A stretch of 54,361 nt of DNA from Zetaproteobacteria bacterium (GTDB lineage Bacteria > Pseudomonadota > Zetaproteobacteria > Mariprofundales > Mariprofundaceae): assembly GCA_036985955.1 (NCBI GenBank), contig BTQQ01000001.1, positions 1 through 54,361 on the forward strand, given 5' to 3'. Shown here in pieces: positions 7,813-30,004 of the stretch. Made by a program: the position numbers and the translations under genes. Position 1 is the first letter of the stretch. Each line of letters begins with the position of its first letter. The notes beneath the pieces were generated by a model. It did no database searches. It was not told the origin of the DNA and saw only the letters and a list, made by a program, of their open reading frames with translations.

Positions 7813-8150
7813 ACCTTCCACTCTCAATGTTCGTTCATGTTTGGTCTTTGATGCTTACGCCCTTCCGGAAAACAATATATCTCACCGGTTCAAACGGGGA
7901 AGGGTAATACCAGTCTACATCGTTATTGATCACACTTTCGACAACAATATCGTAATAGCTGGTGTCCTGTAAAACCATTGGCCGTCTAAAGCCAGTTTGA
8001 TATATCACCGGGTTTGCCGGAATTGTATCAGGAGGTGCGCCAGCAAACGGAGGCGATTTGTGTGCCGCTGGAGACCGAGGGTTATAGGTTATACTATCCG
8101 TTATGTCGGATGTTGCTCCGACAAAATAGAATCTGGCAGCTTGATCCGGG

Positions 8151-9179: not shown

Positions 9180-9262
9180 CCATTTAACGAAACGCTAATC
9201 GGATTGGGCACGAACGCAAGCATGACTTGTTCTTCGCTGGCGGCTCAGGCGTATGCAATGCT

Positions 9263-9961
9263 TTAATCCGGATAGGAAAGAGGGTCCTTTTCTCCAAGTT
9301 CGGCAAATCCCTGTCGCCGGAATCGGCAGGAATCACAGTGGCCGCATGGCTTACCATTGGGTGCCGGATCATAGCAGGAATGGGTAAGACTATAGTCCAG
9401 CCCCAGACTCAGCCCCAAGGCGATGATTTCGGATTTTTTCATCCCGATAAGTGGCGTTTCGATACTGAAAGGTTGTCCTTCAACTCCCGCTCTGGTTCCC
9501 AATTGCACAGCTTTGCAAAAAGCGTCGAAGAATTCGGGACGGCAATCGGGATAACCTGAATAATCAATAATATTAGCACCGATAATGAGGCGGAATGCTT
9601 TGATACGTTCGGCAAATCCCGCAGCGATGGAAAGAAAAATGAGGTTGCGGGCCGGAACATAAGTCACCGGGATGCCATAGGTATTTTCCTGATCCTTGGG
9701 GACGGCGATTTCACTGGTCAGGGCTGAACCACCGATGGCTGCGAGGTTAACGTGCAAAACACGATGATCCGCAACATTCAGGGATGTTGCTACGCGGGCT
9801 GATGCTTCCAACTCAATACGGTGACGCTGGCCGTAGTCAAAGGCTACACTATGACATTCCCATCCCTGTTTTTTTACAGCCCAGGCGAGAGCAGTGCTAG
9901 AATCCAGACCGCCGGATAGCAATACCACGGCCTTGGTGTTTTGGGATAGAATACGAGTCAT
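9263..9961 (-). CDS. queC: 7-cyano-7-deazaguanine synthase
   Basis: PP-loop VVLLSGGLDSST and C-terminal zinc cysteines CGHCDSC. The ATG at 9961 overlaps the queE stop (ATGA). Confidence 0.93.
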   Translation of the reverse strand: MTRILSQNTKAVVLLSGGLDSSTALAWAVKKQGWECHSVAFDYGQRHRIELEASARVATSLNVADHRVLHVNLAAIGGSALTSEIAVPKDQENTYGIPVTYVPARNLIFLSIAAGFAERIKAFRLIIGANIIDYSGYPDCRPEFFDAFCKAVQLGTRAGVEGQPFSIETPLIGMKKSEIIALGLSLGLDYSLTHSCYDPAPNGKPCGHCDSCRFRRQGFAELGEKDPLSYPD

Positions 9962-13964: not shown

Positions 13965-14720
13965 ATGAGCGAAGAAATCAAACACTATACTATCCACTGG
14001 CATGGCAGTCCGTTCCCCCTAATGGTGGGATTCGGTACGGGTCTGTTTCTGCCGTGGGCGTTTATGCTGCAATTTAACTATACACAGCCAACCGCCGCGC
14101 TGGTTTGTCTGGTTATTGGGGGCGCATTGACCATCGCCGGAGGACTTGGCTGGGCCAGTGAGACCATTGGCGTGATTGATGATGAGAACTGGAGCCCGTC
14201 AGCCATGTTAATGTTTATTGGCACCGAGATTATGACCCTTGGTGCTATTCTGGCCGGTTACTGGGTTGCCCGTCTGGGCGCAGACGTATGGCCGCCTGCG
14301 GGTACGCCGGAGATTGGTGCGTCAGGACCGTTGATTGCAACCATTATTCTGATTACTTCCAGTATCACAATTGGTCTGGCGCGCAAACGGGAGATGGAAG
14401 GCAACTCATCCGGTTTTGCCATGATGGTATTGTTATCAGCCGCGATCTGGGTGGTCTTCATGGTGATGACCATTTCCGACTGGAGTGTTCTGGGAAGTGA
14501 GGGCTTTACCATTGGTGTGAATGCCTACGCAACCGCGCTTTACGGCTTTACCGGTATCCACATAGCCCATATCGTGATTGGTCTGCTGGTGATGTTGACC
14601 TGCGTGCCGAGCGCCTTTAAGGGAAAGCTGAGTTTTTCCTACACGCGCGCCATGACGATGTATGTCCACTTCGTGAACGTACTCGGCATCTGGGTGCTGT
14701 TACAGATTTACTACTGGTAA
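13965..14720 (+). CDS. Heme-copper oxidase subunit III-like membrane protein
   Basis: Polytopic, with subunit III-like motifs (LYGFTGIHIAHIV, MYVHFVNVLGIWV). RBS GAGGAGGG lies upstream. Confidence 0.8.
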   Translation: MSEEIKHYTIHWHGSPFPLMVGFGTGLFLPWAFMLQFNYTQPTAALVCLVIGGALTIAGGLGWASETIGVIDDENWSPSAMLMFIGTEIMTLGAILAGYWVARLGADVWPPAGTPEIGASGPLIATIILITSSITIGLARKREMEGNSSGFAMMVLLSAAIWVVFMVMTISDWSVLGSEGFTIGVNAYATALYGFTGIHIAHIVIGLLVMLTCVPSAFKGKLSFSYTRAMTMYVHFVNVLGIWVLLQIYYW

Positions 14721-14740
14721 GTACTGGACAGCCTGTAGCT

Positions 14741-15649
14741 ATGCGGAATTCACTCATGCCTTCCATACGGAACGGGGCCATACTGTACTGGAGCCGGCTT
14801 CGGCTGGTTCCGGCTCTGGCCTGCCTGTTTGCAGCCTTGGGGGCTGGATCAATCATGACTCCCGGAACTGCTCAGGCAGCCTATGGCAATGTGACCAAGG
14901 ATTCACAGATTGATCCGGCCATTTTCCGCATCAATGAGAAGAAATTTCTGGGCGGAAAGACTGACGGGAATTACGTACTTGAGGACGCATTTGGGAACAA
15001 TTTCAAGCTGAGCGATCTGTTCGGTAAGCCGCTGATTCTGGTGTTGTCCTACTTTACCTGTGATGGCGCCTGTTCGGTGATCAATCGTACGCTGGCCAAT
15101 ACCCTGAAAGGGGTGGATCGCTGGAAGATCGGCAAGGACTACAATGTTCTGACCGTATCCTTTGATCAGCATGACACGCCGGCAACGATGCGTGAATTCC
15201 GGGAAAAGATGGGGTTTGAGAAGTTGCCGCAAGGATGGCGCATGGCAACCATGCGGAACAGGAAGGATATTGACCGGCTTGCCGAATCGATCGGTTTCAA
15301 GTTCTTCTGGTCACCAAGGGATCGTATTTTCCTGCATCCCAGTGTTTATACAGTGCTGTCTCCCACGGGTCAGATTACGCGCTATCTGTATGCAGGCAAG
15401 GTGGATGCGGATGATGTGAAACTGGCGCTTACCAAAGCAATGGGCGGGGAAGTTTCCCCGGTAAACATCATTGATTTTGTGGTGGCCGCCTGTCACAGCT
15501 ACAACTACAAGGATGGAAAATACAAGCTCAACATTCCCCTGTTCGTGGCTCTTGGCGGACTCGTGGCCGGAGTGATACTGATGGTCGGGGGGTTCATGAT
15601 TATAAAACGCAAGAGAGGCAGAATCAGGAAGGATATGGTTACTGTATAA
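14741..15649 (+). CDS. SCO1/SenC-like thioredoxin-fold protein (variant CDGAC motif, C-terminal TM anchor)
   Basis: SCO-like core (LILVLSYFTCDGACSVI ... TVSFDQHDTP ... HPSVYTVLSPTGQI) and a C-terminal hydrophobic helix followed by KRKRGRIRK. Confidence 0.75.
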   Translation: MRNSLMPSIRNGAILYWSRLRLVPALACLFAALGAGSIMTPGTAQAAYGNVTKDSQIDPAIFRINEKKFLGGKTDGNYVLEDAFGNNFKLSDLFGKPLILVLSYFTCDGACSVINRTLANTLKGVDRWKIGKDYNVLTVSFDQHDTPATMREFREKMGFEKLPQGWRMATMRNRKDIDRLAESIGFKFFWSPRDRIFLHPSVYTVLSPTGQITRYLYAGKVDADDVKLALTKAMGGEVSPVNIIDFVVAACHSYNYKDGKYKLNIPLFVALGGLVAGVILMVGGFMIIKRKRGRIRKDMVTV

Positions 15650-15709
15650 ATAGTTGTATGAAGTAAGTTGAAGATATTATGAAATGACAAAAACACAGGA
15701 GGGAAAGAG

Positions 15710-16522
15710 ATGAAAATAAAATCGTTCAGCTATAAGGCGCTGGGAGCGTTGCTTGCACTACCTTTAATTCCCACGCTGGCCTATGCATTCCAGATGGAGA
15801 TAGCGACCAGGAATAATTATAAGGGTTTGACACCGCAGGCCCACTGGGAGGAGATGTGGACAGAGGTGATGTGGGATATCACGATTCTCGGCGTGGTTTA
15901 TTTTATCATAGCCCTGTTTTTTCTATTCAGGTACAGGAGGACAGGCCATGATCAGGTTGGCGAATCACCCAAGCTTTCCGCACAGGCTATCCTTGGCTGG
16001 GTCATCATTCCCTGCATGTTGTTCCTAGGGGATGACCTGTTCCTGTATGCCAAGGGTTTCGCGCTGCACAAGCATATGCGTCAGGTGCCGGCCAATGCCC
16101 AGACCATCAAGGTGACTGGTTCCATGTGGAACTGGAATTACGATTATGGCAATGGCGTGGATACGGACAATGAACTGCGCGTGCCGGTTGGCAAGCCAGT
16201 CGTATTTCGTATGACCAGTGACGATGTCGTACATTCCCATTACCTGAACGGTTACCACGTTACTGAAGATGTGATGCCGGGCCGTGTGACCTGGGAATGG
16301 ATCATGCCGGTCAAGGTTGGCGAATCGGTGATTACCTGCCGTGAATACTGCGGTGCGAATCACTCCAAGATGTACGGCAAGCTCATCGTAATGAAACAGG
16401 CCGATTACGATGCCTGGATGACCCAGGCTCTTGCTGATGCCAAGGCTGAATCAGGGCGTCAGATTGCCATGGTCAGTAAACCAAGAATTTCAAGTAATAC
16501 TAATAATGGAGGGAAACTATGA
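15710..16522 (+). CDS. Heme-copper oxidase subunit II with CuA centre
   Basis: Two N-terminal TM helices and the CuA ligands DVVHSH ... CREYCGANHSKM. Confidence 0.9.
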   Translation: MKIKSFSYKALGALLALPLIPTLAYAFQMEIATRNNYKGLTPQAHWEEMWTEVMWDITILGVVYFIIALFFLFRYRRTGHDQVGESPKLSAQAILGWVIIPCMLFLGDDLFLYAKGFALHKHMRQVPANAQTIKVTGSMWNWNYDYGNGVDTDNELRVPVGKPVVFRMTSDDVVHSHYLNGYHVTEDVMPGRVTWEWIMPVKVGESVITCREYCGANHSKMYGKLIVMKQADYDAWMTQALADAKAESGRQIAMVSKPRISSNTNNGGKL

Positions 16523-18216
16523 CTGGTGAACATTTTATGGGTTTTGTAGGGCATGAGCCAAAGGGCAAGCCCGGTTGGCCGAAAACAGCCAAGGAGTGGC
16601 TGTTCACGATTGATCATAAGGTTATCGGTGTCTGGTATCTAATCGGCTCCCTTGCATCCTTTGCCGTGGCCGGTCTTGCCGCCATGTTGATGCGTATCGA
16701 ACTGGGCAGCGTGGGTCCGGATATTACCAGTGACGGCAACGTCTATAATTTGTGGCTGACCATGCACGGCGCGGTGATGATTCTGGGGTTCCAGATTCCG
16801 GCTCTGCTGGGCTTTGTCGCCAACTATGCCGTACCCATCATGATTGGGGCCAAGGATATGGCCTTTCCGCGCGTCAATGCGCTGAGCGTATGGCTATTGT
16901 GGTCCGGCATTCTGCTGGCCCTGGCTAACCTCGTCATTCCGGATTCCTTCAACGGCATGTGGACCGGCTATCCGCCCTATTCCACTTCGGATGCTGCGGG
17001 CAATACGGCGCTGTATTCACTGGTGGTCATCGTGCTTGGCATGTCCTCCGTATTTGGTGCGGTAAATCTGGCTTGTACGGTGGTTTTCATGCGTTGCAAG
17101 GGCCTGGGTTGGTTCCAGTTGCCGATGACGGTTTGGTGCGTGTTCACGGCCAATATCATTCAGTTGATCTTTGTACCGGTACTGGCTGCTTCGGTGCTGC
17201 TGCTCTCACTGGATAAATATCTGGGCTTTGGCTTCTACAATCCGGAAACGGGCGGCGACGTGCTGCTATATCAAAACCTGTTCTGGTTCTATTCGCATCC
17301 GGCTGTGTACGTAATTTTGCTGCCGTTTTGTGGCATCATTTTTGAGCTATTCTCGGTATCAGCCAAAAACATGGTGTTCAGTTACAAGGTGGCGGTCCTG
17401 TCCGTACTGGCCTTTATTCCGGCCAGCGCCGACGTCTGGGCGCATCATGCCTTCGTAGCGGGTCTGCCGGACTGGTTTAACATGCTGATGTCGTTCACCA
17501 CATTGCTGATTTCATTGCCCTTTGGTCTGATGATGCTAAGTATGGTGGGTACGCTGTACAAGGGTGCCATCCGCTATTCCGGCCCGATGATCTGGGCTCT
17601 GGGTGCTTGGGTGATGCTTATTTTCGGTGGTTTGACCGGCATTCCGAACGCCCTAGCCGCTGTGGACTACGGTATTTCGGATTCTTATGCCATCATGAGC
17701 CACTTTCATTATGTGATGGCGGTAGCCGGAGCCATGGCTACCTTTGGGGGCGTGTTCTACTGGTTCCCGAAGCTGACCGGTCGGATATGCAGCGAAATGT
17801 TGACCAAGCTCTCGGGCATTAGCTTCTTTATCGGCATGAATGTGGTGATGGCGCCGCTGTATATCGCCGGTGTCGAGGGTATGCCGCGCCGCTATATGGA
17901 TTATCAGCAGTTTGCCGATAATGCCACCATCGTCGGTGCGCAACACTGGTCCACGATCGGTGCCTTTATTACCTTCCTCAGCGTATTGCTGATGCTGGTG
18001 GCGTGGATTCACGGCATGCTCAAGGGTGAGAAGTCATCTCAGAACCCCTGGGGATCGCAATCGCTGGAATGGACGTCTACTGCACTTATTGCCGGACAGG
18101 GTAATTTCCCGACTCCGGTGGAGGTTGCCGAAAACTGGCATCCGTACAATTACATTGATAATCCGAAGCCGACGTTCGAGGCTCACCCGTGGGGTCAGCC
18201 TGACCCAGCAAAGTAG
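16519..18216 (+). CDS. Heme-copper oxidase subunit I (A-family-like, YS variant)
   Basis: Heme/CuB ligands TMHG, FWFYSHPAVY, AHHAFVAG and SHFHYVMA. The ATG overlaps the subunit II stop (ATGA). Confidence 0.93.
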   Translation: MTGEHFMGFVGHEPKGKPGWPKTAKEWLFTIDHKVIGVWYLIGSLASFAVAGLAAMLMRIELGSVGPDITSDGNVYNLWLTMHGAVMILGFQIPALLGFVANYAVPIMIGAKDMAFPRVNALSVWLLWSGILLALANLVIPDSFNGMWTGYPPYSTSDAAGNTALYSLVVIVLGMSSVFGAVNLACTVVFMRCKGLGWFQLPMTVWCVFTANIIQLIFVPVLAASVLLLSLDKYLGFGFYNPETGGDVLLYQNLFWFYSHPAVYVILLPFCGIIFELFSVSAKNMVFSYKVAVLSVLAFIPASADVWAHHAFVAGLPDWFNMLMSFTTLLISLPFGLMMLSMVGTLYKGAIRYSGPMIWALGAWVMLIFGGLTGIPNALAAVDYGISDSYAIMSHFHYVMAVAGAMATFGGVFYWFPKLTGRICSEMLTKLSGISFFIGMNVVMAPLYIAGVEGMPRRYMDYQQFADNATIVGAQHWSTIGAFITFLSVLLMLVAWIHGMLKGEKSSQNPWGSQSLEWTSTALIAGQGNFPTPVEVAENWHPYNYIDNPKPTFEAHPWGQPDPAK

Positions 18217-18253
18217 CCTCACCAAAGGGGCACTGAAGCTAGAACGAACCTGA

Positions 18254-18300
18254 GGATGTGCACCCCCCCAGTATGTCGGGGTGTGCATCCTTGCGGTTTT
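18254..18300 (+). terminator. Putative intrinsic terminator after HCO subunit I
   Basis: 13-bp stem GGATGTGCACCCC / GGGGTGTGCATCC (two G.U pairs), followed by TTGCGGTTTT. Confidence 0.45.
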
Positions 18301-18307
18301 GCATAAA

Positions 18308-18321
18308 TTGATTCAGGTCAA
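18308..18321. promoter_or_regulatory. Near-consensus FNR-type box upstream of ctaB
   Basis: TTGATTCAGGTCAA matches 9 of the 10 consensus half-site positions. It lies about 75 bp upstream of the ctaB ATG. Confidence 0.4.
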
Positions 18322-18395
18322 TGCCAAATTGGCAATCAACAGGAGAATGCGCCTAGTTAGAAGCCAGCGAAGCTGGGCAGATCGTGGGGGGATCA

Positions 18396-19307
18396 ATGCG
18401 AGAACAGTCGCTAGAAATAGAAAATACCGCAACCGGTAAAAATAGCCGAGTAAAGACTGCTATCGCCGGGTTGTTCGAATTGGCCAAGCCCGGCATTGTC
18501 GGCCTGACGCTGGTGGCTGCATTAACAGGTGTTTATTTCGGCAACCATGGTGTGATGCCTCACTGGGATCTTATCTTCTGGACTTTTTTGACCTTGGGAC
18601 TGGCGACTGCCGGATCCTGTATGCTAAACAATTATTACGATCGTGACATTGACAAGCTTATGCGCCGTACGCGTTCGCGGGCACTGGCGGCCGGACTGGT
18701 ATCCAATCGGCTTGTACTGAGTGTTGCATTAATTCTGGCAGTTCCATCGCTTGCCCTGATGGCCTGGATGGTCAATCCGCTTGCAGCGCTGGTAACGGCA
18801 GTGGGCGTGATTGGTTATGTTGGCGTCTATACCATGTTGATGAAGCGTTCGACGCCGTGGGCCAACCAGTTTGGCGGTATTGCGGGCGCTGTGCCACCTA
18901 TGGTCGGCTATGCTGCGGTGACAGGAGATTTGGGCGCCCCGGCATGGATTCTATTTGCCATCATGGTGGTCTGGCAGCAGCCGCATGCCTTGAGTCTGGC
19001 TTTGAAGTATCGTGAGGATTATGCCCGAGCCAACGTGCCGGTTATTCCCGTGGCCTGTGGCGTCCAGGCAACCAAGATACGTATTGTTGCTTATGCGCTT
19101 GCATTGATTCCCGTGGCCATACTGCCTTATGTGTTTGACATGGCAGGTATCTGGTATTTGGTGACTTCAATTCTGTTGGGCTCCATGTTCCTGTTTATGG
19201 GTGTGCGTTTTCTGCGTTCGGAACGGGATTGTGATATGCGTGTGTTTGCATTCTCCATCGTGTATTTGATTCTTCTGTTCGGCGTGATGGTACTTGATTC
19301 GATATAA
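18396..19307 (+). CDS. ctaB: Protoheme IX farnesyltransferase (heme O synthase)
   Basis: UbiA-family motif NNYYDRDIDKLMRRT in a polytopic protein. ATG at 18396, after a G-rich SD, is preferred over the GTG at 18384. Confidence 0.9.
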   Translation: MREQSLEIENTATGKNSRVKTAIAGLFELAKPGIVGLTLVAALTGVYFGNHGVMPHWDLIFWTFLTLGLATAGSCMLNNYYDRDIDKLMRRTRSRALAAGLVSNRLVLSVALILAVPSLALMAWMVNPLAALVTAVGVIGYVGVYTMLMKRSTPWANQFGGIAGAVPPMVGYAAVTGDLGAPAWILFAIMVVWQQPHALSLALKYREDYARANVPVIPVACGVQATKIRIVAYALALIPVAILPYVFDMAGIWYLVTSILLGSMFLFMGVRFLRSERDCDMRVFAFSIVYLILLFGVMVLDSI

Positions 19308-19356
19308 ATCTTTACCGAGAATCTACATTCAAATGCAGGAAATCACATCGTTCCAG

Positions 19357-20253
19357 ATGAAACGTAGCATAGCCCTTTTTCTCGTATGCACTGCGATGGC
19401 TTGGTATATCAACCCGGCATATGCTGGAGTGAGCGTTGAACATGCATGGGTGCGCATCCCGCCACCGGTTGCTGACACGGCTGCAGCCTATATGACTTTG
19501 CGCAACGGGGGTGACCGGGACGTTGTGATTGTCCGTGTCAGTTCTGATGTATCCAAAACCTCTGGAATTCACTTGATGCGGAAGCAGGGTGCAGTGATGC
19601 GTATGTCGGTGGTCAACAATATAACCGTTCCCGCGCATGGTTTTGTGGAACTGGAGCCTGGCGGCATGCATCTCATGCTTACCGGTCTGAAGCGGGTACT
19701 GAAACAGGGCCAGAGGGTAAACCTTGCATTGCATTTCACGAATGGTAAAACAGTCGAGATTGTTGCTCCCGTCCGCGGCCCAGGGTCAATACAGGAACCC
19801 GCTAGCCAGATCTATAAACAGGCCATGAGCCTTGTCAGGAAGGAAAACACTACGGATGCGGCCACGCTATTCCAACAGGCCGCCGAGAAAGGGAACAGGC
19901 GAGCTCAATATCAGCTGGGCTTGTTGTACGCGCGTGGCGACGGTGTGCAAAAGAACCTGGTAAAGGCGAGGGAATGGCTACGCAAGGCTGCGATGCAGGG
20001 CCATCCCAAAGCACAATTTTACCTTGGCCAGATGTATGTGTTTGGTGACGGGGGCGAGAAGGATAATGTGAAGGCGACTACGTGGTTCTGGCTTGCCAAG
20101 ACGCTGGGCGATCGTTTTGCCGGGGATAGCCTGCAGGTCATGAGCGGCAAGGTTTCTCCGCTTGAACTGGCCGAAGCGGAAAAGCGGGCCAAAGCCTTGT
20201 GGCAGAAAATGCCACACGATATGAAAATTGAACACAGTGCGGCGATGCATTGA
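19357..20253 (+). CDS. Copper chaperone PCu(A)C domain fused to Sel1-like repeats
   Basis: Signal peptide, then a PCuAC-like domain (AAAYMTLRNGG ... HLMRKQGAVMRM ... EPGGMHLMLTGL), then Sel1 repeats (AQYQLGLLYARGDGVQKNLVKAREWLRKAA, AQFYLGQMYVFGDGGEKDNVKA). Confidence 0.8.
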   Translation: MKRSIALFLVCTAMAWYINPAYAGVSVEHAWVRIPPPVADTAAAYMTLRNGGDRDVVIVRVSSDVSKTSGIHLMRKQGAVMRMSVVNNITVPAHGFVELEPGGMHLMLTGLKRVLKQGQRVNLALHFTNGKTVEIVAPVRGPGSIQEPASQIYKQAMSLVRKENTTDAATLFQQAAEKGNRRAQYQLGLLYARGDGVQKNLVKAREWLRKAAMQGHPKAQFYLGQMYVFGDGGEKDNVKATTWFWLAKTLGDRFAGDSLQVMSGKVSPLELAEAEKRAKALWQKMPHDMKIEHSAAMH

Positions 20254-20284
20254 TAATGGCCATCAGCTGGAAGAAGGATGAAAT

Positions 20285-20407
20285 ATGAATGACCCACTTA
20301 AGGAAGAGAAACAAAGGGAACGTAAAAAAGTGATTGGAGGGCTGGTGCTCACCCTCATTATTTTTGTATGGTTTCTGTATTACCTGATTTCCCATATTCC
20401 GGGTTAA
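20285..20407 (+). CDS. Possible 40-aa single-TM protein (cytochrome oxidase small assembly protein-like)
   Basis: MNDPLKEEKQRERKKVIGGLVLTLIIFVWFLYYLISHIPG. It is too short for the ORF track. GAAGGA lies upstream. A charged N-terminus plus one TM helix resembles small proteins found in oxidase operons. Confidence 0.4.
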   Translation: MNDPLKEEKQRERKKVIGGLVLTLIIFVWFLYYLISHIPG

Positions 20408-20480
20408 CCATATATTCAGGGTGTCCTGATTTTCCGCTAGATTTTTACATGGAAGGATTTCGTTCTTTGGAGGTTTTTTA

Positions 20481-21074
20481 ATGCGTATCAACGCAACTAC
20501 GCGCGTATTGCATTATTGCCTGATTATGACAGTTGTATTTCAACTGCTTAGTTCAGAGTTTATGAGGGTGTTGGAGCCGGGAAAAATGGAAGGCTTTGAT
20601 ACAGTGCTTTTTACACTGCATATAATGATTTTTGGCTGGGGAGCATTTCTGATCAGTTCAGTTTATATCCTTATCCTGCATGATGATAAGGATGCTTGGG
20701 CGCGAATGGTGCCCTGGTTTTCAGCCAGTCACCGCGCAGCATTATTCAAATCGGTACGTAAAGATATTTTCGCCATGTTCCAGGGATGTCTGCCTCATCC
20801 TGAGGAGAAAGGAGCCATAGCCGGTGTGACGCATGGGCTTGGTATCCTGCTGCTGCTTGCTCAGGGATTTACCGGCGCCTATGTAATGTTCGGCGTTCGC
20901 TCGGATGGCACCATGCGCACTGATACACTGCTGGTACTTGATTTTCATGCGATCTTTGCAAAGCTGCTTTGGATATTTCTGATTGGGCATATTTGCATGT
21001 TTATTATTCATCTGATGTTTGGCCATCGTGAGATTCTGGATGTATTCCGGCGCGTACATATCCCATGGAAATAA
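20481..21074 (+). CDS. Cytochrome b561 family protein (CybB-like)
   Basis: 197 aa, four TM helices with conserved His residues (VLHY, TLHIM, VTHG, GHICM..HLM). Confidence 0.8.
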   Translation: MRINATTRVLHYCLIMTVVFQLLSSEFMRVLEPGKMEGFDTVLFTLHIMIFGWGAFLISSVYILILHDDKDAWARMVPWFSASHRAALFKSVRKDIFAMFQGCLPHPEEKGAIAGVTHGLGILLLLAQGFTGAYVMFGVRSDGTMRTDTLLVLDFHAIFAKLLWIFLIGHICMFIIHLMFGHREILDVFRRVHIPWK

Positions 21075-21081
21075 AAAACAC

Positions 21082-21942
21082 ATGAATACTAAGTTTCCTA
21101 CACTCTCCGCGATGATATTGTTTGCGTTCTCAATGTTGTCCCCTTCCTTGGGTATGACTGCTGGTGAAAACTCGGATCATCAGGCAGACATCTCATCAAA
21201 TCAGACTGAACGGCTGCAACATCCCCGGTTTGGTGACAAAATGACTGAGCCAGTGCTGGGGATGCAGTTTGTCTATATTGAGCCAGGTAGTTTTGTGATG
21301 GGTAGCCCCGAGAGTGAACTCAATCGTTACCCGGATGAGAAGCAGCACAAGGTGCAGATCAAGTCCGGATTCTGGATGGGTAAATATGAGGTGACGTTTG
21401 AACAGTACGATGCTTTTGCCAAGGCCACACACCATGCAAAACCGCTTGATGAGTTATGGGGACGCGGTAAACGGCCTGTGATAGATGTCAAATGGTTCGA
21501 AGCCACAGATTTTGCCCGATGGTTAAGCAAAAAATCAGGGTATCATTATCGTTTACCTACCGAAGCGGAGTGGGAATACGCGGCGCGTGCAGGTACAACA
21601 ACGGCCTATTCATGGGGTGACAACCCCTCAGATTTTCCCGATTATGCCTGGAACACTACCAATGCGAACAATCAGACACATCCTGTCGGGCTGAAGAAGC
21701 CCAATCCGTGGGGGCTGTATGATATGCATGGCAATGTATGGGAATGGACTGCATCGACATATGCCAGGGAGTACGATGGCAGCGAACTAAAAGGCAGTAG
21801 CCAAAAATCAAAAGCACTACGCTCTGTACGCGGTGGTTCCTGGTATTTTTACCCCAAAGGCATGCGCTCTGCGGATCGCCGTATTTACAGTCCGTGGTTG
21901 CACTGGTCCTACATAGGATTTCGTCTGGTTCGCGACCCGTAA
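21082..21942 (+). CDS. Formylglycine-generating-enzyme (SUMF1/FGE) family protein, NirV-like
   Basis: Signal peptide and FGE motifs (RLPTEAEWEYAARAGT, HGNVWEWT, RGGSW). The ATG at 21082 lies 8 nt after the b561 stop. Confidence 0.85.
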   Translation: MNTKFPTLSAMILFAFSMLSPSLGMTAGENSDHQADISSNQTERLQHPRFGDKMTEPVLGMQFVYIEPGSFVMGSPESELNRYPDEKQHKVQIKSGFWMGKYEVTFEQYDAFAKATHHAKPLDELWGRGKRPVIDVKWFEATDFARWLSKKSGYHYRLPTEAEWEYAARAGTTTAYSWGDNPSDFPDYAWNTTNANNQTHPVGLKKPNPWGLYDMHGNVWEWTASTYAREYDGSELKGSSQKSKALRSVRGGSWYFYPKGMRSADRRIYSPWLHWSYIGFRLVRDP

Positions 21943-22985: not shown

Positions 22986-23522
22986 ATGGAAACAAATTCA
23001 GTACCAGAAAAGAAGCGGGTGAATAAAGGCCTTTTTCTCCTGATCGCAGCGCTGGCAACCGTAGTGATCGGGGCGTTTACCATGAAAGTAATTACCAGCA
23101 GGCCGGATATAAAAGTGACTAAACAGAAAATCACCCGTGCCGAACGGGCTGGATTCAAGGAAAAGGTCGACTTGATGGTGGCGCGTTACACGGTTCGCAG
23201 AGAAGGGGATATGCCCATTATCCATCCCCCGGCCGGCTCCGATATTTATCTGCTGGCACGAAACTATGATTGGGGAAAGTTCATCCTTGAACTGGAAAAA
23301 GGGAAATCGTACCGCCTGCACTTGGCAAGCCTGGACATGCGCCATGCCATTGTTGTGCATGAACTGGAACTGATGAACCGCATTAAACCTGATGAATTCA
23401 AGGTTATCGAATTTACGCCCGGCAAGGCGGGGCGTTTCAGGTTAATCTGTGGCGAATGGTGCGGTACGGGACATGCCGGCATGGTGGGTACAATCATTGT
23501 TACCGAACCTGCCGGCAAATAA
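22986..23522 (+). CDS. Single-TM cupredoxin subunit II-like protein with CuA ligands (ba3/B-family-like)
   Basis: One TM helix, then HAIVVHE ... CGEWCGTGHAGM, which fits the CuA signature C.E.C...H..M. ATG at 22986 follows GAGG. Confidence 0.8.
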   Translation: METNSVPEKKRVNKGLFLLIAALATVVIGAFTMKVITSRPDIKVTKQKITRAERAGFKEKVDLMVARYTVRREGDMPIIHPPAGSDIYLLARNYDWGKFILELEKGKSYRLHLASLDMRHAIVVHELELMNRIKPDEFKVIEFTPGKAGRFRLICGEWCGTGHAGMVGTIIVTEPAGK

Positions 23523-23554
23523 AGATTCGTTGAGCCAGAGCCTGTTAACAGACC

Positions 23555-24148
23555 CTAGTCTCCGTGGTTTTTTCCTAATCTGAACATTTCGTGCAATATC
23601 TTATGGCCTTTAAGTTCATGTACCAGGGCCATTCCGGCATGTCCGGCTACAAAAACCAACATCATTGTGGCCATAATACTATGATATTCCCAGATCATCT
23701 TGATATCGGGAGTCATATCTCCATGAGGCCCGATGCCCAGAAATAACATGGACCCGGTGAGCCCCAGAAAGAGCGCAAGCGTGATGCCTGTTCCATGAAT
23801 CGCGCCAGAAATGAAATGGCGTTCCCCGGGGGGGAGAAGCTTGCCATGCAGCCAGCCCGGAATGTCCCGGCGTATTTCCAGCCAGAGGCTATTGCGTCCT
23901 GCTGCATTCATCCACGGAAACAGCCGTTCCCGGCCTGCAACTTCATCCAGAACTACAATTAAATAAACACAGACAAGAACTAAAGAGATCGAACCGATAC
24001 CTTCATGAATGCCGATGAAAAGCGTTTCAATGACATGTCTGGGATGCCCGGGTTCCGGAAAGCCCACCAGTTTTTCGCCAAATATTTGTAACAGTACGGA
24101 TGCCATGATACCAAAGTGCAGGATGCGTATGGTGCGATCATATTTCAT
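23555..24148 (-). CDS. Cytochrome b561 family protein (paralog of 20481-21074)
   Basis: 197 aa with the same His/TM layout as the first copy (ILHF, GIHEG, AIHG, GHAGM..HEL). Confidence 0.8.
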   Translation of the reverse strand: MKYDRTIRILHFGIMASVLLQIFGEKLVGFPEPGHPRHVIETLFIGIHEGIGSISLVLVCVYLIVVLDEVAGRERLFPWMNAAGRNSLWLEIRRDIPGWLHGKLLPPGERHFISGAIHGTGITLALFLGLTGSMLFLGIGPHGDMTPDIKMIWEYHSIMATMMLVFVAGHAGMALVHELKGHKILHEMFRLGKNHGD

Positions 24149-24267
24149 GGGCGAATAGTCTCATAAATAAATCTTGTGGGGAACGCCGACCTGCACGATA
24201 AACCTGCTGCATCGGGAAAGAACCAGTGCTAAGGTTCGCCGCGAAATGCCGCATCAAGGATACATCT

Positions 24268-25635
24268 ATGACAACAAAATATACATTACCACTTACTGAT
24301 ACACCACAACTCCGGCTTGCGGTCGGCTGGTTATGTGTCGCAGTGGGTTTCCTGCTGGCTTCGGGTATTTATCCACTCCTGTTGGCATTGGCACGCACCA
24401 CTTACGAAATGCCATGGAAGGATTTTTTCTATACGGCGCTGGTGCTGCATGTGGATTTTACCGTGTTGTGGTGGCTGTTGGCGATTGCCGGGGTGTTCTG
24501 GAGTCTGAATTCGACATCCCGTGCCATTTCAACGGGGTGGGCTGCTCTGATGCTGGTCGTGGCGGGGGGGATACTCGTCGGCATCTCGCCATTGACCGGG
24601 GCTGCCAATCCGCTCACCAACAATTATGTGCCAATGTTGGAAAACCATTATTTTATCAAGGGGCTGCTTGTTTTCGGTGGTGGCATTTTACTGCTGGTTT
24701 TACGCAGCCTTATGGCAACGCCCATGTCTCTTGTTTTTGCTTCAAATCATGAGGCAGCGATGCGCTTTGGTATATGGAGCGCTGCTGTCGCAACGCTGGC
24801 TGCGCTGCTGGCCCTGTTATGGAGTTTTGGCCACATGCCGGAAGGACTGGAACATCGCGCCTATTATGAGCCCCTGTTCTGGGCCGGGGGTCATATCCTT
24901 CAATTTGCGCATACGATATTACTGTGCATCTGCTGGCTGTGGTTGGCACAGGTCTGTGGCGTTGCAACGCCTGTTCATCCCCGCGTGGTGATAGCTGTAT
25001 TTGCCATTGCCATAACCTCTGTGCTGTTTGCCCTGATTCCCTTTATTCAACATAAGGTGGGGGATGCTGAATTTGCCCGCTGGTTTGTATGGTTAATGCG
25101 TGACGGAAACGGTATCGCCCCCTTTGTTATTGGTATCGCAGTCATGTGGGGGATTGTCAGTGGCGGGGTGCCGACAAAGGATCAGCGGCATCTGTATCTC
25201 GCACTGCTATTTTCAATCATTCTTTTTGCAACGGGTGGTATTCTGGGGTTGTTTATTGGTGAAAGCAGCACCCTGATTACGGCCCATTACCATGGTTCGA
25301 TTGTTTCAGTGACCATGGCTTTCATGGCCATGACCTATTACTGGCTGCCCCGTTTCAGCTTCGCCACGCCTAACCTGAAATGGGCCAGGATTCAGGTGTA
25401 TGCTTATGCCGTCGGTCAAATGCTTCACATTATCGGCCTGGCGTGGGGCGGCGGTCATGGCATGAAGCGTAAGGTCGTGGGCACGACGCAGGATATCGGC
25501 GTTCACGCCTGGCTTACACCGCAGGATTTGGTCGGACTGGGCGGCGTCATCGCTGTGTTGAGCGGAATTCTGTTCGCCATCGTGGTGTTGCCCGTGATGT
25601 TTAAAGGAAGAAGCGAGGGAAGAGCGCATGCCTGA
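24268..25635 (+). CDS. Divergent heme-copper oxidase subunit I-like protein
   Basis: About 12 TM helices. It has HCO-like landmarks: LVLHVDF (helix II His), LFWAGGHILQF (helix VI His) and AHYHGS (helix X His-x-His). FIQHK stands where the HH pair is expected, and there is no Tyr after the helix VI His. ATG at 24268 follows AAGGA. Confidence 0.75.
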   Translation: MTTKYTLPLTDTPQLRLAVGWLCVAVGFLLASGIYPLLLALARTTYEMPWKDFFYTALVLHVDFTVLWWLLAIAGVFWSLNSTSRAISTGWAALMLVVAGGILVGISPLTGAANPLTNNYVPMLENHYFIKGLLVFGGGILLLVLRSLMATPMSLVFASNHEAAMRFGIWSAAVATLAALLALLWSFGHMPEGLEHRAYYEPLFWAGGHILQFAHTILLCICWLWLAQVCGVATPVHPRVVIAVFAIAITSVLFALIPFIQHKVGDAEFARWFVWLMRDGNGIAPFVIGIAVMWGIVSGGVPTKDQRHLYLALLFSIILFATGGILGLFIGESSTLITAHYHGSIVSVTMAFMAMTYYWLPRFSFATPNLKWARIQVYAYAVGQMLHIIGLAWGGGHGMKRKVVGTTQDIGVHAWLTPQDLVGLGGVIAVLSGILFAIVVLPVMFKGRSEGRAHA

Positions 25636-26656
25636 CGAAACCCGAAAAAACAGACAGATTGCCATCTGGCTGCTGTGTGTCTGTGCCGCAATTTTTGTCA
25701 TGCTGGTGATTGGTGGCGCCACTCGCTTAACACATTCAGGTTTGTCGATGATGACCTGGGATCCGTTGATGGGCTGGATTCCACCCTTAAATCAGGCGCA
25801 GTGGCTCGATTCCTTTGAACACTACAAAAAAATTCCCGAATTTTATGAACTGAATCCCGATATGGATGTGGAAGGATATAAGAATATTTTTATGCTCGAA
25901 TATATCCACCGCGTCTGGGGCCGGTTAATCGGGCTCTTCTTTTTGCTGCCGTTTCTGTATTTCCTGATGGCCGGGAAGATAGCAAAATCATTCCGTCCCA
26001 AACTGATCATAATGTTTGTGCTGGGCGGCATGCAGGGCGTACTGGGCTGGTACATGGTCAGCAGCGGCTTTGATAATCCCCATGTTAGCCAGTATCGGTT
26101 GACAGCACATCTGTCGGCGGCTTTCATCATTTACGGATATATATTGTGGGTAGCGATGGGTCTGCTTTTCCCAGACAGGGATGCTTCCCTGTATGATGTC
26201 AGACCGCTAAGACGGCTGGCATTGGGCCTAACCGGCCTGATTGCGCTAACAGTCGTGGCTGGAGGTTTGGTGGCAGGGCTGAAGGCGGGATTCGCCTACA
26301 ACACATTCCCGTTAATGGAAGGGCACTTTATCCCGGAAGGCTATGCCATGCTTACCCCTTTTTACCTCAATTTCTTTGAAAACATTGCAGCGGTTCAGTT
26401 CGATCATCGCATTCTGGCCGAGACGCTGTTGTTGTGCGTATTCGGGTTGTGGTGGTATGCGCGAAAATTTACGCTATCGGACCGGGCGCGCATGGCATTC
26501 AATTTACTGTTGGGCATGGTTGTGCTGCAAGTATCTTTGGGTATCGCCACGCTGGTGATGGTGGTGCCCACATGGCTTGCCGTAACACATCAGGGTAGTG
26601 CCATGCTTTTGTTTACTGCCGCACTGTTTACCAATCACACACTACGCAGGAACTGA
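25628..26656 (+). CDS. ctaA: Heme A synthase (COX15/CtaA)
   Basis: GGATRLTHSGLSM, EYIHRVWGR and a HQGSAM region. The gene overlaps the preceding one by 8 nt. Confidence 0.9.
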   Translation: MPDETRKNRQIAIWLLCVCAAIFVMLVIGGATRLTHSGLSMMTWDPLMGWIPPLNQAQWLDSFEHYKKIPEFYELNPDMDVEGYKNIFMLEYIHRVWGRLIGLFFLLPFLYFLMAGKIAKSFRPKLIIMFVLGGMQGVLGWYMVSSGFDNPHVSQYRLTAHLSAAFIIYGYILWVAMGLLFPDRDASLYDVRPLRRLALGLTGLIALTVVAGGLVAGLKAGFAYNTFPLMEGHFIPEGYAMLTPFYLNFFENIAAVQFDHRILAETLLLCVFGLWWYARKFTLSDRARMAFNLLLGMVVLQVSLGIATLVMVVPTWLAVTHQGSAMLLFTAALFTNHTLRRN

Positions 26657-26660
26657 GGGT

Positions 26661-28010
26661 ATGCAAAACAGCGGATTAAGAAACATGTTGCCACTGGTTG
26701 GAATCTATGCCCTGCGTATGCTCGGCTTGTTTATGATTTTGCCTGTGTTTGCACTGTATGCCGAACATTTGCATGGCAGCACCCCCATGCTGGCCGGCTT
26801 GGCACTGGGTGCATACGGCCTGACCATGGCCTTACTGCAGATTCCATTTGGCATGCTATCGGACCGTTTCGGGCGAAAGCCGGTGATTGCCGCCGGGTTA
26901 CTGTTATTCGCGTTGGGCGGGGTGGTTGCGGCTATGTCCGATTCGGTGACTGGCGTAATTGCAGGCAGGTTGCTGCAAGGCTCAGGAGCCATTGCAGCGG
27001 CTGTGATGGCGCTGATTGCCGATCTGACTGATGAATCTCAGCGTACCAAGGCCATGGCGGTATTCGGTATAGGAATTGGCGCTTCATTTACCTTCGCCCT
27101 GATCCTTGGTCCCATGCTGGATAGCTATATCGGCGTGGATGGTTTGTTCTGGCTTGCATCTGTATTTGGTATCGTCGGTATCGTCATTCTCTATCTGTTT
27201 GTGCCAAATCCTCAACACAGTCATATGCATCGTGATGTTGAAGTAGAGCCGATGAAACTCAAGCAGATATTAGCCAACCGGCAATTGCTACGTATGGATT
27301 CCGGCATCTTTTTTCTTCACACGATGATGACATCCACGTTCATTGCTTTGCCCTTTGCCCTGCGCAATGATGTGCATTTGCCAACGGAAGCGCATGTGTG
27401 GTTCTACCTCCCCATTCTGCTGGCTTCCGTAGCCGGTATGATTCCTCTGATTATTGTGGCAGAGAAATACGGGAAGATGAAACAGATTTTCACGGGATGT
27501 GTTGTTGCCCTGATTGTGGCGGAAGGGTTACTGGCGACGACACATCATTTCATGGCCGGACTCGTGGCCGGTACGTTTATCTATTTCGTGGCTTTCAATG
27601 CGCTCGAAGCAAGCCTGCCATCGCTGGTATCACGTATGGCCCCCGCGGCAGGAAAAGGGACTGCCATGGGTGTGTATTCTACCTCCCAGTTCTTCGGTGC
27701 ATTCTGCGGAGGTGTTTCCGGTGGCGTGATGTACGGAGCATTTGGTGTTGGCGGCGTATTCATGGTTAGCGCTGGCCTGGCGCTGATCTGGCTACTGGTT
27801 TGTCGTGGCATGCGTTTTCCCATGAACCTATCAAGCAAAATGATTCCTGTCGGTAGCATCAATCAGGTGGAAGCCGAAGCACTTGCTGGAAAGCTGAAGC
27901 AGGTACGCGGTGTCGAGGATGTTACGATAGCTCAGGAAGAGGGTGTGGCCTATCTGAAGGTGGATGAAAATCAGTATAACCCGGATGTAATTCCCGAATT
28001 GCTTAAGTGA
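26661..28010 (+). CDS. MFS transporter with a soluble C-terminal extension of about 60 aa
   Basis: MFS signature GMLSDRFGRKPVI and 12 predicted TM helices. The C-terminal tail reads INQVEAEALAGKLKQVRGVEDVTIAQEEGVAYLKVD. ATG at 26661 follows GAGGG. Confidence 0.85.
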   Translation: MQNSGLRNMLPLVGIYALRMLGLFMILPVFALYAEHLHGSTPMLAGLALGAYGLTMALLQIPFGMLSDRFGRKPVIAAGLLLFALGGVVAAMSDSVTGVIAGRLLQGSGAIAAAVMALIADLTDESQRTKAMAVFGIGIGASFTFALILGPMLDSYIGVDGLFWLASVFGIVGIVILYLFVPNPQHSHMHRDVEVEPMKLKQILANRQLLRMDSGIFFLHTMMTSTFIALPFALRNDVHLPTEAHVWFYLPILLASVAGMIPLIIVAEKYGKMKQIFTGCVVALIVAEGLLATTHHFMAGLVAGTFIYFVAFNALEASLPSLVSRMAPAAGKGTAMGVYSTSQFFGAFCGGVSGGVMYGAFGVGGVFMVSAGLALIWLLVCRGMRFPMNLSSKMIPVGSINQVEAEALAGKLKQVRGVEDVTIAQEEGVAYLKVDENQYNPDVIPELLK

Positions 28011-28100: not shown

Positions 28101-29276
28101 ATGCAGGTTAGCGCGTTCGCACTGTTTCGGCTCGGGTTTCGACCGTTTTTTCTGACTGCGGTATTGTTCTCGGTTATAGTCATGAGTATCTGGATGCTGC
28201 AACTTGTTTTTTCTATCAAAGTTCTTCCATCCGATATTACGCCAATGTTCTGGCATGCGCATGAAATGATTTATGGCTATGCGTTGGCGGTTGTGGCGGG
28301 TTTTCTCCTCACCGCTGTCAGAAACTGGACCAGGATTCAAACCATCCATGGCCTGCCTCTGCAATTGTTGCTTCTGTTCTGGGTTCTGGCCCGAATTGCA
28401 TCGCTGATTCCCGGTCCGCATGCCCTGATTGCAGGAGTGATTATGGATAATATATTCATCGCTTCTCTGTCACTTGCCATCACGATACCGGTTGTCCGGG
28501 CAAGGTTATGGAAGAATATGAGTGTGGTGTCCAAAATTTATTTTCTTCTGATTGGGAATATTATTTATTCTCTTGGCCTTCTCGGTATGTTTTCCGGCGG
28601 GGAACGCATCGGGATTTATATTGGGCTGTATATGATTCTCTCTCTGATTCTTGTGTTGTCACGCAGGGTTATGCCGATGTTCATTGAGGGAGGAGTGGGT
28701 TATACCGTATCCCTGAAAAATCATTTATGGGTGGATATCTCAGGATTCCTTCTATTTCTCACTTTTGCGGTCTCCGATACTTTCTTTACTACCCCCGCGT
28801 TGACCGCATGGCTGGCGGCCGCATTATTTATTCTACACTGTATTCGACTTTGGGGATGGCATACACATGGTATATGGGATAAACCATTACTGTGGGTGCT
28901 GTATCTTGCTTATGCATGGATCATCCTCGGTTTTGGGCTAAAATTTGTTGCTTTCATAGCCGGTATTCCGCCCTCGCTGGCGGTTCACGCGTTTACTGTT
29001 GGAGGCATCGGCATGATGACGCTGGGCATGATGGCGCGGGTGTCTCTGGGGCATACCGGAAGAAATATCATGCAGCCGCCATCCGGGCTTGGCCCGATAT
29101 TTTTCATGTTGTTTCTCGGCGCATTCGTGCGGGTTGTTTTTCCGCTGATGTTCGCGGGTCACTACCTGTTATGGATTGGAATATCGCAAGTGTTCTGGAT
29201 CGGGGCCTTTTCATTATTCCTGTATATCTATGCACCCATCCTGATACGCCCGCGTATCGATGGACAATGGGGTTAA
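28101..29276 (+). CDS. nnrS: NnrS family heme/copper membrane protein
   Basis: FRPFFL, WHAHEMIYGYALAVVAGFLLTAVRNWT and HAFTVGGIG, typical of NnrS. Confidence 0.85.
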   Translation: MQVSAFALFRLGFRPFFLTAVLFSVIVMSIWMLQLVFSIKVLPSDITPMFWHAHEMIYGYALAVVAGFLLTAVRNWTRIQTIHGLPLQLLLLFWVLARIASLIPGPHALIAGVIMDNIFIASLSLAITIPVVRARLWKNMSVVSKIYFLLIGNIIYSLGLLGMFSGGERIGIYIGLYMILSLILVLSRRVMPMFIEGGVGYTVSLKNHLWVDISGFLLFLTFAVSDTFFTTPALTAWLAAALFILHCIRLWGWHTHGIWDKPLLWVLYLAYAWIILGFGLKFVAFIAGIPPSLAVHAFTVGGIGMMTLGMMARVSLGHTGRNIMQPPSGLGPIFFMLFLGAFVRVVFPLMFAGHYLLWIGISQVFWIGAFSLFLYIYAPILIRPRIDGQWG

Positions 29277-29410: not shown

Positions 29411-30004
29411 CTAGGTCCAGCGCAGCCAGTGGCGAATCGTGTTTGCGATATCTTCCGGTTTACTGGTGTGGCTCATGAGTTTGTCGAGGTTGCCATCCGG
29501 GCGGACAATGATGATGAAGGAAGCATGGCTGACGGTATAGTTACCCTTCTTGTCCGGTGCTTCTTTTTTATAGCCTGATAAAAAAGATTTCGCGGCGGCC
29601 TCAATCTCTTTTGAGTTACCGCTTAGCCCCACGATATGAGGATTAAAATGCCGGGCATATTTTGCCATCACTTCAGGAGTATCACGATCCGGGTCCGTGG
29701 TGATAAATACCGGTAGAACTTTGGCCAATTCATCTGAATCCAGCAACTTGAGTGCTGCTCCGATTCTAACCAGTGTGCCAGGGCAGACGTCGGGGCAATG
29801 GGTATAACCGAAGTAAATCACGCCAACCTTGCCCAGCATATCCTTGGAAGTGACTGGGCCATCGACACTATGTAGGGAAAATTTACCATGGATATCAGGA
29901 TAATGGCTGGGAGGCATCCTGTTCATGCTGTATATACCGAAGCCAAAAAAAGCTGCGGTAAGTCCGAGAAGGATGAAAGGAAAAATGTTGCGTTTGCGGC
30001 TCAT
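29411..30004 (-). CDS. SCO family copper chaperone/thiol-disulfide protein
   Basis: Canonical FGYTHCPDVCP motif, a distal His (VSHAS) and an N-terminal TM anchor. Confidence 0.9.
   Translation of the reverse strand: MSRKRNIFPFILLGLTAAFFGFGIYSMNRMPPSHYPDIHGKFSLHSVDGPVTSKDMLGKVGVIYFGYTHCPDVCPGTLVRIGAALKLLDSDELAKVLPVFITTDPDRDTPEVMAKYARHFNPHIVGLSGNSKEIEAAAKSFLSGYKKEAPDKKGNYTVSHASFIIIVRPDGNLDKLMSHTSKPEDIANTIRHWLRWT

Follow-up and report, generated by a model that had tools for sequence, protein, structure and literature searches.

What does a homolog of heme-copper oxidase (HCO) subunit I do once the ligands of its metal-B site (CuB or FeB) are lost and its heme ligands remain? This question is raised by COX1L, a gene on the forward strand at positions 24268-25635 of the window, by which we mean the whole 54,361-nucleotide (nt) stretch analyzed (Zetaproteobacteria bacterium, GenBank assembly GCA_036985955.1, contig BTQQ01000001.1, positions 1 to 54,361). 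COX1L encodes a 455-amino-acid (aa), 12-helix protein that weakly matches the Pfam COX1 profile (50 bits, E 2e-13), has an AAGGA ribosome-binding site 7 nt upstream of its ATG at 24268, and overlaps the downstream heme A synthase gene, ctaA (25628-26656, forward strand; Pfam COX15-CtaA, 347.6 bits, profile positions 1-321 of 322), by 8 nt at the junction of its stop with the ctaA start (ATGCCTGA, read directly from the sequence). Upstream, on the same strand, a gene at 22986-23522 encodes a 178-aa CuA cupredoxin protein with one transmembrane helix, and a gene for a cytochrome b561 family membrane protein (23555-24148, reverse strand; Pfam Ni_hydr_CYTB, 63 bits) lies between the two. An earlier note on this DNA proposed that the CuA protein and COX1L form a second, highly divergent oxidase-like pair coupled to heme A synthase; the motifs and open reading frames (ORFs) that it quoted for both proteins are all present. 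Here we report that, by profile comparison, the closest relative of COX1L is subunit I of the nitric oxide (NO) reductase family eNOR, and we tentatively propose that COX1L is a non-catalytic paralog of that subunit, acting as an accessory membrane hemoprotein in heme A supply.

Heme Ligands and the Metal-B Site of COX1L

Residue conservation was read from 162 family members, comprising 25 from a word-based search and 137 representatives at 50% identity. The landmark motifs of the window protein are LVLH61VDF, FWAGGH209ILQF, AH340YH342GS, and FIQ261H262K. The ligands of the low-spin heme, H61 (161 of 162 members) and H342 (160/162), align to eNOR H91 and H409, and the high-spin heme ligand H340 (160/162) aligns to eNOR H407, while R401 (157/162) and K402 (158/162) sit at the position of the GxPRR heme-propionate pair. 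These retained residues suggest that COX1L binds heme, with heme A as its predicted cofactor. H209 of helix VI and W205 are invariant (162/162), and Q212 (161/162), M277 (160/162), and E201 are nearly so. An AlphaFold2 model made with 25 homologs contains twelve long helices (pLDDT 80.7, pTM 0.87), and Foldseek matched it to subunit I of the bovine, bacterial aa3, Escherichia coli bo3, and ba3 oxidases with TM-scores of 0.69-0.77 and a probability of 1.00.

Only one of the three metal-B histidines, H209, is kept; both helix VII histidines are lost throughout the family. The earlier note had predicted an altered or absent CuB/FeB site without the cross-link Tyr, with which the 162-member alignment agrees; where it counted one CuB His as missing, the loss is real and its extent was underestimated. 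The Q261-H262 pair, which lies 53 residues past H209 and had been pointed out where HCOs carry the HH pair, proved to be lineage-specific. Position 262 is Y in 73 members, H in 16, F in 14, L in 10, T in 9, and G in 8, and position 261 is more variable still, Ala being the commonest residue at only 17%; neither position holds a conserved Asp. Most relatives have Ala/Ser-Tyr where the window protein has Q-H, a pair that recurs in the 25-sequence alignment only in its 87%-identical relative. The cross-link Tyr at +4 from H209 is absent, this position (F213) being Phe in 129 of 162 members, although no three-dimensional search for a migrated Tyr was made.

A loss of this kind could also mark COX1L as a decaying relic of eNOR subunit I, or betray a faulty alignment behind which three His ligands are hidden. 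The low Pfam COX1 score and the lack of an eNOR subunit I gene in the Zetaproteobacterial loci fit such a reading. However, three binuclear-site histidines were looked for and appear neither in the HMMER alignment to the Aquifex B-family oxidase 7deg_A nor in the HH-suite alignment to eNOR subunit I, both of which place non-His residues opposite the HH pair. The sole other conserved His, H387 (134/162), is on helix XI, which we take from known HCO structures to be on the low-spin heme side. Signs of decay were sought as well, but hundreds of species keep a full-length ORF that is free of frameshifts and rich in invariant residues, and COX1L is 60-90% identical across Zetaproteobacteria, in keeping with the earlier suggestion that it is no pseudogene. 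When 44 eNOR-operon loci were compared with the copies in L038 (loci are numbered with the prefix L), mean identity was 69.6% for eNOR subunit I, 62.3% for eNOR subunit II, 58.9% for heme O synthase, 56.7% for COX1L, 50.8% for the cytochrome b/FeS protein CytbFeS, and 43.8% for a 183-aa protein, the last two of which are described below. COX1L thus evolves under purifying selection of the strength expected for an accessory or biogenesis gene, its constraint resembling that of heme O synthase, and its equivalent in Ferrigenium straubiae has been detected as a protein. Decay or misalignment is highly improbable, and we regard both as effectively excluded.

Kinship to eNOR and the Loci That Carry COX1L

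The eNOR family comprises CuA-dependent nitric oxide reductases derived from B-family oxidases (Murali et al., 2024; PMC11214002), with heme As in both sites (PMC11214002). Alignment of COX1L by hhalign with 33 eNOR subunit I sequences from the same loci gave a probability of 99.7% (E 5e-27, 420 columns), and with four sequences per profile the match to eNOR subunit I (E 2.9e-23 over 421 columns) far exceeded that to the A-family COX1 of the window (6e-9 over 180 columns). On this profile evidence the closest relative of COX1L is eNOR subunit I, which stood at the top of the profiles tested. The 560-590-aa proteins of these loci were identified as eNOR subunit I because they carry GHSSQQ, HH, and HFH motifs, have ba3 as their top solved relative, and belong to operons whose syntenic counterpart in Ferrigenium has been described as eNOR. 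Against the sequences of solved structures the COX1L family profile retrieved only 7deg_A, at E 0.08, which rules out a sequence-level placement of COX1L on solved structures.

COX1L and eNOR subunit I have in common the heme ligands, W205 and H209, Q212 at +3 from the helix VI His, W223, S316, M353, Y357, Q376, and the Arg pair region; both lack the cross-link Tyr, and they usually occupy the same operon. In contrast, the helix VII metal-B histidines of eNOR, H302 and H303, correspond to variable positions in COX1L, as do the polar residues conserved in helices VI-VIII of eNOR, Q257, N259, H263, Y268, E282, S285, R286, Y292, D307, H333, and E342, many of which are hydrophobic in COX1L, and COX1L is shorter by about 110-135 residues. 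Described HCO families keep three metal-B histidines with the exception of gNOR, described as the first family in which any active-site His is replaced (Murali et al., 2024; PMC11214002). Both gNOR and COX1L are members of the HCO superfamily with a depleted metal-B site and no Tyr, but gNOR exchanges one His for Asp and has a subunit II without CuA, whereas COX1L exchanges two histidines for non-ligand residues and its neighbor protein has a complete CuA site. The active-site pattern of COX1L matches no described HCO family, as the earlier note had suspected, and the family would represent a subunit I scaffold reused for something other than O2 or NO reduction.

The family is widespread. The word-based search returned 210 homologs sharing words with COX1L, whose names, the best named match being 87% identical, assign the window to the Mariprofundaceae, and an exhaustive profile search returned 1,678 clusters (50% identity) at E <= 1e-3 and 1,301 at E <= 1e-10, a count far below that of canonical oxidases, which argues that COX1L is a family distinct from them. 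COX1L is present at no fewer than 593 loci in species-representative genomes, at least 593 being a lower bound, and the best 80 of these loci were inspected. Carriers include Zetaproteobacteria, Gallionella/Ferrigenium, many Burkholderiales, sulfur- and iron-oxidizing Gammaproteobacteria, and Nitrospirae; among cultured strains, Noviherbaspirillum sp. ST 5-3, Piscinibacter caeni MQ-18, and Pelomicrobium sp. G1 have the gene. Gene context was sampled outside Zetaproteobacteria in 50 loci whose sequence extends 6.5 kb or more upstream of COX1L. Neighbors include SCO in 48 of these loci, heme O synthase in 46, CytbFeS in 45, eNOR subunit I and the 183-aa protein in 43 each, and a CtaA-type gene in 20, and the usual order is CuA subunit II, eNOR subunit I, heme O synthase, SCO, CytbFeS, the 183-aa gene, and COX1L. 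In Beta- and Gammaproteobacteria COX1L usually closes the eNOR operon on its 3' side, with heme O synthase and SCO ahead of it, a position held by homologs of 39-45% identity in 43 of the 50 loci, including that of Candidatus Ferrigenium bremense. There are also eNOR operons without COX1L.

Other arrangements tie COX1L to heme and copper genes in different ways. In L048 and L050, and less completely in L037 and L069, genes for CtaA, SCO1, and COX1L run in series on one strand, divergent from eNOR, while in L008, L012, and L032 an opposite-strand CtaA gene is followed by COX1L and then SCO1. Two Nitrospirae loci (L009 and L011) and L010 have an A-type oxidase operon, then heme O synthase (UbiA), then COX1L; the A-type COX1 shows HPAVY and HH motifs in L009 and L010, the match in L011 being too short to show them. 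COX1L occurs without eNOR subunit I in Nitrospirae and, as described below, in Zetaproteobacteria. Fusions were also observed, with COX1L joined to heme O synthase within an eNOR II-I operon in one lineage (P0247/L083), to cytochrome b in protein P0121, and to TPR repeats in several proteins. Genes of the NnrS family of heme/copper membrane proteins, which is tied to NO stress, adjoin eNOR subunit II in L082 and lie downstream of COX1L in L066 and L070. In a Thiotrichaceae metagenome-assembled genome (L062) the 8 kb to each side of COX1L (8001-9386) are free of oxidase, heme, and copper genes; its flanks hold a phasin gene, a short-chain dehydrogenase gene, and a sigma-54 two-component pair.

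A member of this family appears to have been noticed previously, although not studied. A 2026 preprint gave the name "eNOR scaffold protein," of unknown function, to F. straubiae gene 2878407321, which is annotated as hypothetical/K02274 and lies in the eNOR operon after heme O synthase, Sco1, cytochrome b/FeS, and a hypothetical gene (bioRxiv 10.64898/2026.01.22.701106). Synteny suggests that 2878407321 belongs to the COX1L family, as the congener Ca. F. bremense (L028) has a COX1L, 42% identical, at the position of the scaffold gene. Like COX1L, the named protein is COX1-like and annotated as K02274, and the preprint offers no sequence analysis or function for it; the window COX1L differs in having no eNOR operon and in being coupled to ctaA beside an A-family oxidase. 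In the F. straubiae proteome the protein stands at 28.0, compared with 31.6 for eNOR subunits I and II, and under denitrifying conditions its transcripts are several-fold below those of eNOR subunit I (bioRxiv 10.64898/2026.01.22.701106). This lower abundance, together with a constraint similar to that of heme O synthase, fits an accessory role.

The preprint's name raises the possibility that COX1L is a structural or electron-wiring scaffold, one that joins cytochrome b-type modules (CytbFeS and b561) to eNOR or aa3 in a supercomplex and has no part in cofactor synthesis and no catalysis of its own. CytbFeS, which combines a cytochrome b, two [4Fe-4S] clusters, and FlpD, precedes COX1L together with the 183-aa protein in 43-45 of the 50 loci, a second CytbFeS often follows COX1L, and the P0121 fusion joins cytochrome b to COX1L directly. 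A supercomplex was itself proposed in the preprint (bioRxiv 10.64898/2026.01.22.701106), and the retained heme sites and propionate-binding Arg/Lys pair would suit such wiring. However, CytbFeS is found in eNOR operons with or without COX1L, COX1L occurs without CytbFeS in Zetaproteobacteria and Nitrospirae, and a scaffold leaves the ctaA coupling and the heme O synthase fusion unexplained, so that we consider this role quite unlikely. Examples of CytbFeS genes in eNOR operons lie at 5775-7451 in L038, followed by the 183-aa gene at 7387-7938, and at 13335-15583 in L082. In COX1L-bearing loci the 183-aa gene usually comes after CytbFeS; its product has a single helix, a conserved motif (CRer..EELAkL..nmR....CPReRspv), and no Pfam match. 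The idea that this protein is a degenerate subunit II was rejected (hhalign probability 1.7%). An unannotated 235-aa protein takes its place in L082.

A Proposed Role in Heme A Supply and a Possible Redox Role

Seven Zetaproteobacterial genome loci and the complete genome of the isolate Mariprofundus ferrinatatus were compared as far as their contigs reach. The order is an A-family oxidase operon, copper chaperones, an opposite-strand GyrI-like gene, the CuA gene, COX1L, and ctaA, followed in most by a gene for a major facilitator superfamily (MFS) transporter (L001, L002, L004-L007, and L081; NnrS instead in L003), with NnrS and SCO1 nearby. The A-family operon lies upstream of COX1L in L001, L002, L004, L005, and L081, and a SCO gene is near COX1L in four of the five loci with enough flank. 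In every Zetaproteobacterial locus that reaches past COX1L, ctaA overlaps or abuts it, so the coupling first noticed as an 8-nt overlap in the window is a kept feature. The antisense b561 gene, which the earlier note placed between the CuA gene and COX1L, is indeed there in the window and in L001, L002, L004, L006, and L081, but as it is absent from two of seven loci (L005 and L007) it is not a fixed partner. No eNOR subunit I was found in the available flanks (to ~8-10 kb) of the seven loci and M. ferrinatatus. The window cluster contains no second ctaA, and for this reason the heme A made through the COX1L-coupled ctaA presumably goes to the A-family oxidase. In M. ferrinatatus, Mariprofundus sp. 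KV, and L006, genes for a cNMP-binding (Crp/FNR-like) protein and a PAS-domain protein stand between the CuA gene and b561; the two genes, at 5273-7245 in L004 and 7277-9239 in L081 and both absent from the window, hint at O2- or NO-responsive control.

We propose that COX1L serves the supply of heme A, made from heme O, to true heme-copper enzymes, which would be eNOR in Beta- and Gammaproteobacteria and the neighboring A-family oxidase in the Zetaproteobacterium of the window. In one version, heme O or heme A would be held in the subunit-I-like pockets of COX1L and then handed off; in another, COX1L would relay electrons to heme A synthase, with the CuA protein as donor here and cytochrome b/FeS proteins as donors in other genomes. 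Several observations point this way. Heme-binding residues are kept while metal-B ligands and the helix VI-VIII polar residues are lost; COX1L keeps company with the genes for heme O synthase, heme A synthase, and SCO, and one lineage has it fused to heme O synthase; COX1L occurs with two HCO families that use heme A, eNOR and the A-family; and eNOR itself does without COX1L in some operons. A subunit I look-alike that is coupled or fused to heme A and heme O synthases is a candidate for heme A insertion. No such factor is listed in a 2022 review of oxidase assembly, which describes the route of heme A from CtaA to subunit I as unknown (PMC9145763). The job proposed for COX1L, between heme A synthase and subunit I, would be that of Surf1/Shy1 and CbaX, the heme a insertion factors of A- and B-family oxidases, which are likewise genetically linked to oxidase and heme A genes. 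Surf1, however, is built of a periplasmic domain and two transmembrane helices, in contrast to COX1L with its 12-helix copy of the subunit I fold, and the two share no kinship of sequence or fold as judged from the Pfam match of COX1L, which is to COX1 only, and from that fold, no direct comparison with Surf1 having been made. Heme A supply is our leading explanation of COX1L, held with a little less than even confidence.

Several observations sit uneasily with it. A pure chaperone leaves unexplained why an intact CuA protein stands beside COX1L in Zetaproteobacteria without eNOR subunit I in the available flanks, and it does not account for the near-invariance of H209, Q212, E201, and M277. 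The cytochrome b fusions and the b561 and CytbFeS neighbors point to electron transfer; like the CuA protein and the near-invariant residues, these cytochrome b partners fit a redox-active protein. NnrS, an FGE-sulfatase-family gene, and eNOR subunit II are NO-related company. The solitary COX1L of L062 has no recognizable partner within 8 kb on each side.

The CuA protein itself appears fully equipped. It is a full-length homolog of eNOR subunit II with a complete CuA signature (H120...C155GEWC159GTGH163AGM166), the ligands of which (H120, C155, C159, H163, and M166) do not vary among 23 sequences that include eNOR subunit II. Its AlphaFold2 model (pLDDT 88) consists of one helix and a beta-sandwich, and its top Foldseek match is ba3 subunit II (2qpe_B, E 1.8e-11), bearing out the likeness to ba3 that the earlier note had drawn. 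The CuA protein and Thermus thermophilus ba3 subunit II each have a single helix, a cupredoxin domain, and the full set of CuA ligands, but the subunit-I-like neighbor of the CuA protein lacks a metal-B site, and sequence comparison places the CuA protein with eNOR subunit II. Its closest relatives outside Zetaproteobacteria adjoin 562-564-aa COX1 proteins in eNOR-type operons.

Such a protein could, together with COX1L, make up a two-subunit redox enzyme with a heme-only active site, formed by the high-spin heme with His209, Gln212, and Tyr/His262 and supplied through CuA with electrons from periplasmic cytochrome c; it would act on NO, O2, or a similar small molecule, and would constitute a thirteenth, metal-B-less HCO family. 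P450nor shows that a single heme can, chemically, support NO reduction. The customary II-I order is found in L005 and L007, where 116-127 nt separate the CuA gene from COX1L downstream of it; every CuA ligand is kept across Zetaproteobacterial orthologs of 48% to 88% identity; and the flanks available for the seven Zetaproteobacterial loci and M. ferrinatatus contain no eNOR subunit I. The almost invariant distal residues H209, Q212, and E201 would suit an active site, and NnrS, the Crp/FNR-type and PAS regulators, and eNOR ancestry lend the locus an NO/O2 flavor. However, COX1L has lost the two metal-B histidines of helix VII along with the polar residues that eNOR conserves in helices VI-VIII, position 262 may be Y, H, F, L, T, or G, and in most genomes COX1L follows biogenesis genes and has no CuA gene of its own, some copies even being joined to heme O synthase; moreover, eNOR subunits I and II are more abundant than the F. 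straubiae equivalent. An enzyme of this kind is therefore unlikely, although a serious contender. The earlier picture of the pair as a free-standing new oxidase does not hold, since both genes derive from the eNOR system and COX1L is usually found among biogenesis genes.

A broader formulation, in which the CuA protein and COX1L form a redox-active, metal-B-less HCO whose electrons, drawn from cytochrome c, run by way of CuA and two hemes to either heme A synthase or NO/O2, seems rather improbable to us. Were it true, COX1L would be the missing electron-donating partner of bacterial CtaA or would harbor a heme-only NO/O2 site, and either destination of the electrons would be a functional class new to the heme-copper superfamily. 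Under the heme A supply that we favor, COX1L would be a testable candidate both for the transfer of heme A from CtaA to subunit I and for the reductant of bacterial CtaA.

Literature searches for a described CuB-less subunit-I-like protein gave only the name in the 2026 Ferrigenium preprint, with no analysis, and searches on heme A genes in Mariprofundus returned nothing relevant. The two-His loss with both heme sites retained, the spread beyond eNOR operons, and the fusions appear to be undescribed, as does the Zetaproteobacterial CuA-COX1L-ctaA arrangement. In databases COX1L is annotated as "cbb3-type cytochrome c oxidase subunit I" (NCBI) or as K02274 (coxA; KEGG), both of which are wrong for a protein without a metal-B site. 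Such misannotation can inflate counts of terminal oxidases and NO reductases in genomes of iron and sulfur oxidizers, and reported expression of a Zetaproteobacterial "eNOR" (PMC8114936) may concern misannotated COX1L.

Surrounding Genes of the Window

Upstream of the CuA gene, at 13965-19307 on the forward strand, lies the A-family heme A oxidase operon, in which Pfam identifies COX3, a SCO-like protein, COX2, COX1, and CtaB. Its COX1 carries the motifs SHPAVY (in place of GHPEVY), HH, and HFH and has caa3 oxidase 2yev_A as its top solved-structure match (E 1e-102), and the SCO-like gene encodes 302 aa with a weak SCO1 match. Between this operon and the CuA gene, Pfam identifies genes for a PCuAC-Sel1 copper chaperone, a second b561, and an FGE-sulfatase-family protein (19294-21942, forward strand). 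The first is a 319-aa ORF (19294-20253) that fuses a PCuAC copper chaperone domain to Sel1/TPR repeats; its counterpart region in M. ferrinatatus is called as separate SCO1 and Sel1 genes. Within 20481-21942 the FGE-sulfatase-family gene overlaps the end of the second b561 gene. The nirV gene, which adjoins nirK, is a member of the same FGE-sulfatase family. On an unrelated contig (P0363) an FGE-sulfatase gene is followed by genes for a multicopper oxidase, cytochrome c, UbiA, and eNOR subunits II and I, the multicopper oxidase having two domains and possibly being NirK.

Downstream, the product of the COX1L-coupled ctaA scores 296 bits against the NCBIfam heme A synthase model, under its equivalog cut-off of 550. 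Directly 3' of ctaA is the MFS transporter gene (26598-28010, forward strand; Pfam MFS_1, 168 bits, plus a C-terminal YajR_YAM domain), whose true start is probably the ATG near 26661. MFS transporters are needed for the copper supply of some oxidases (PMC10588857, PMC5829832); the window protein, read by eye for features of CcoA-type copper importers, appears YajR-like, having a YAM domain. It is followed by NnrS (28101-29276, forward strand; Pfam NnrS, 333 bits) and a SCO1/SenC copper chaperone (29411-30004, reverse strand; Pfam SCO1-SenC, 133 bits). No Cox11/CtaG or Surf1 gene was found among the window ORFs scanned between 13965 and 30004. Between 21900 and 30200 there are 16 promoter-like sites (11.9 ± 3.5 expected) and 17 terminator-like sites (9.4 ± 3.9 expected), neither of which helps to delimit operons.

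Elsewhere in the window, a 777-aa ORF at 34591-36924 combines NIR_SIR nitrite/sulfite reductase domains with a C-terminal TusA sulfurtransferase domain, and the gene at 3870-5630 fuses an isocitrate/isopropylmalate dehydrogenase domain to a DUF1451 zinc-ribbon domain. The reverse strand carries, at 8151-9179, a gene for a di-heme cytochrome c peroxidase.

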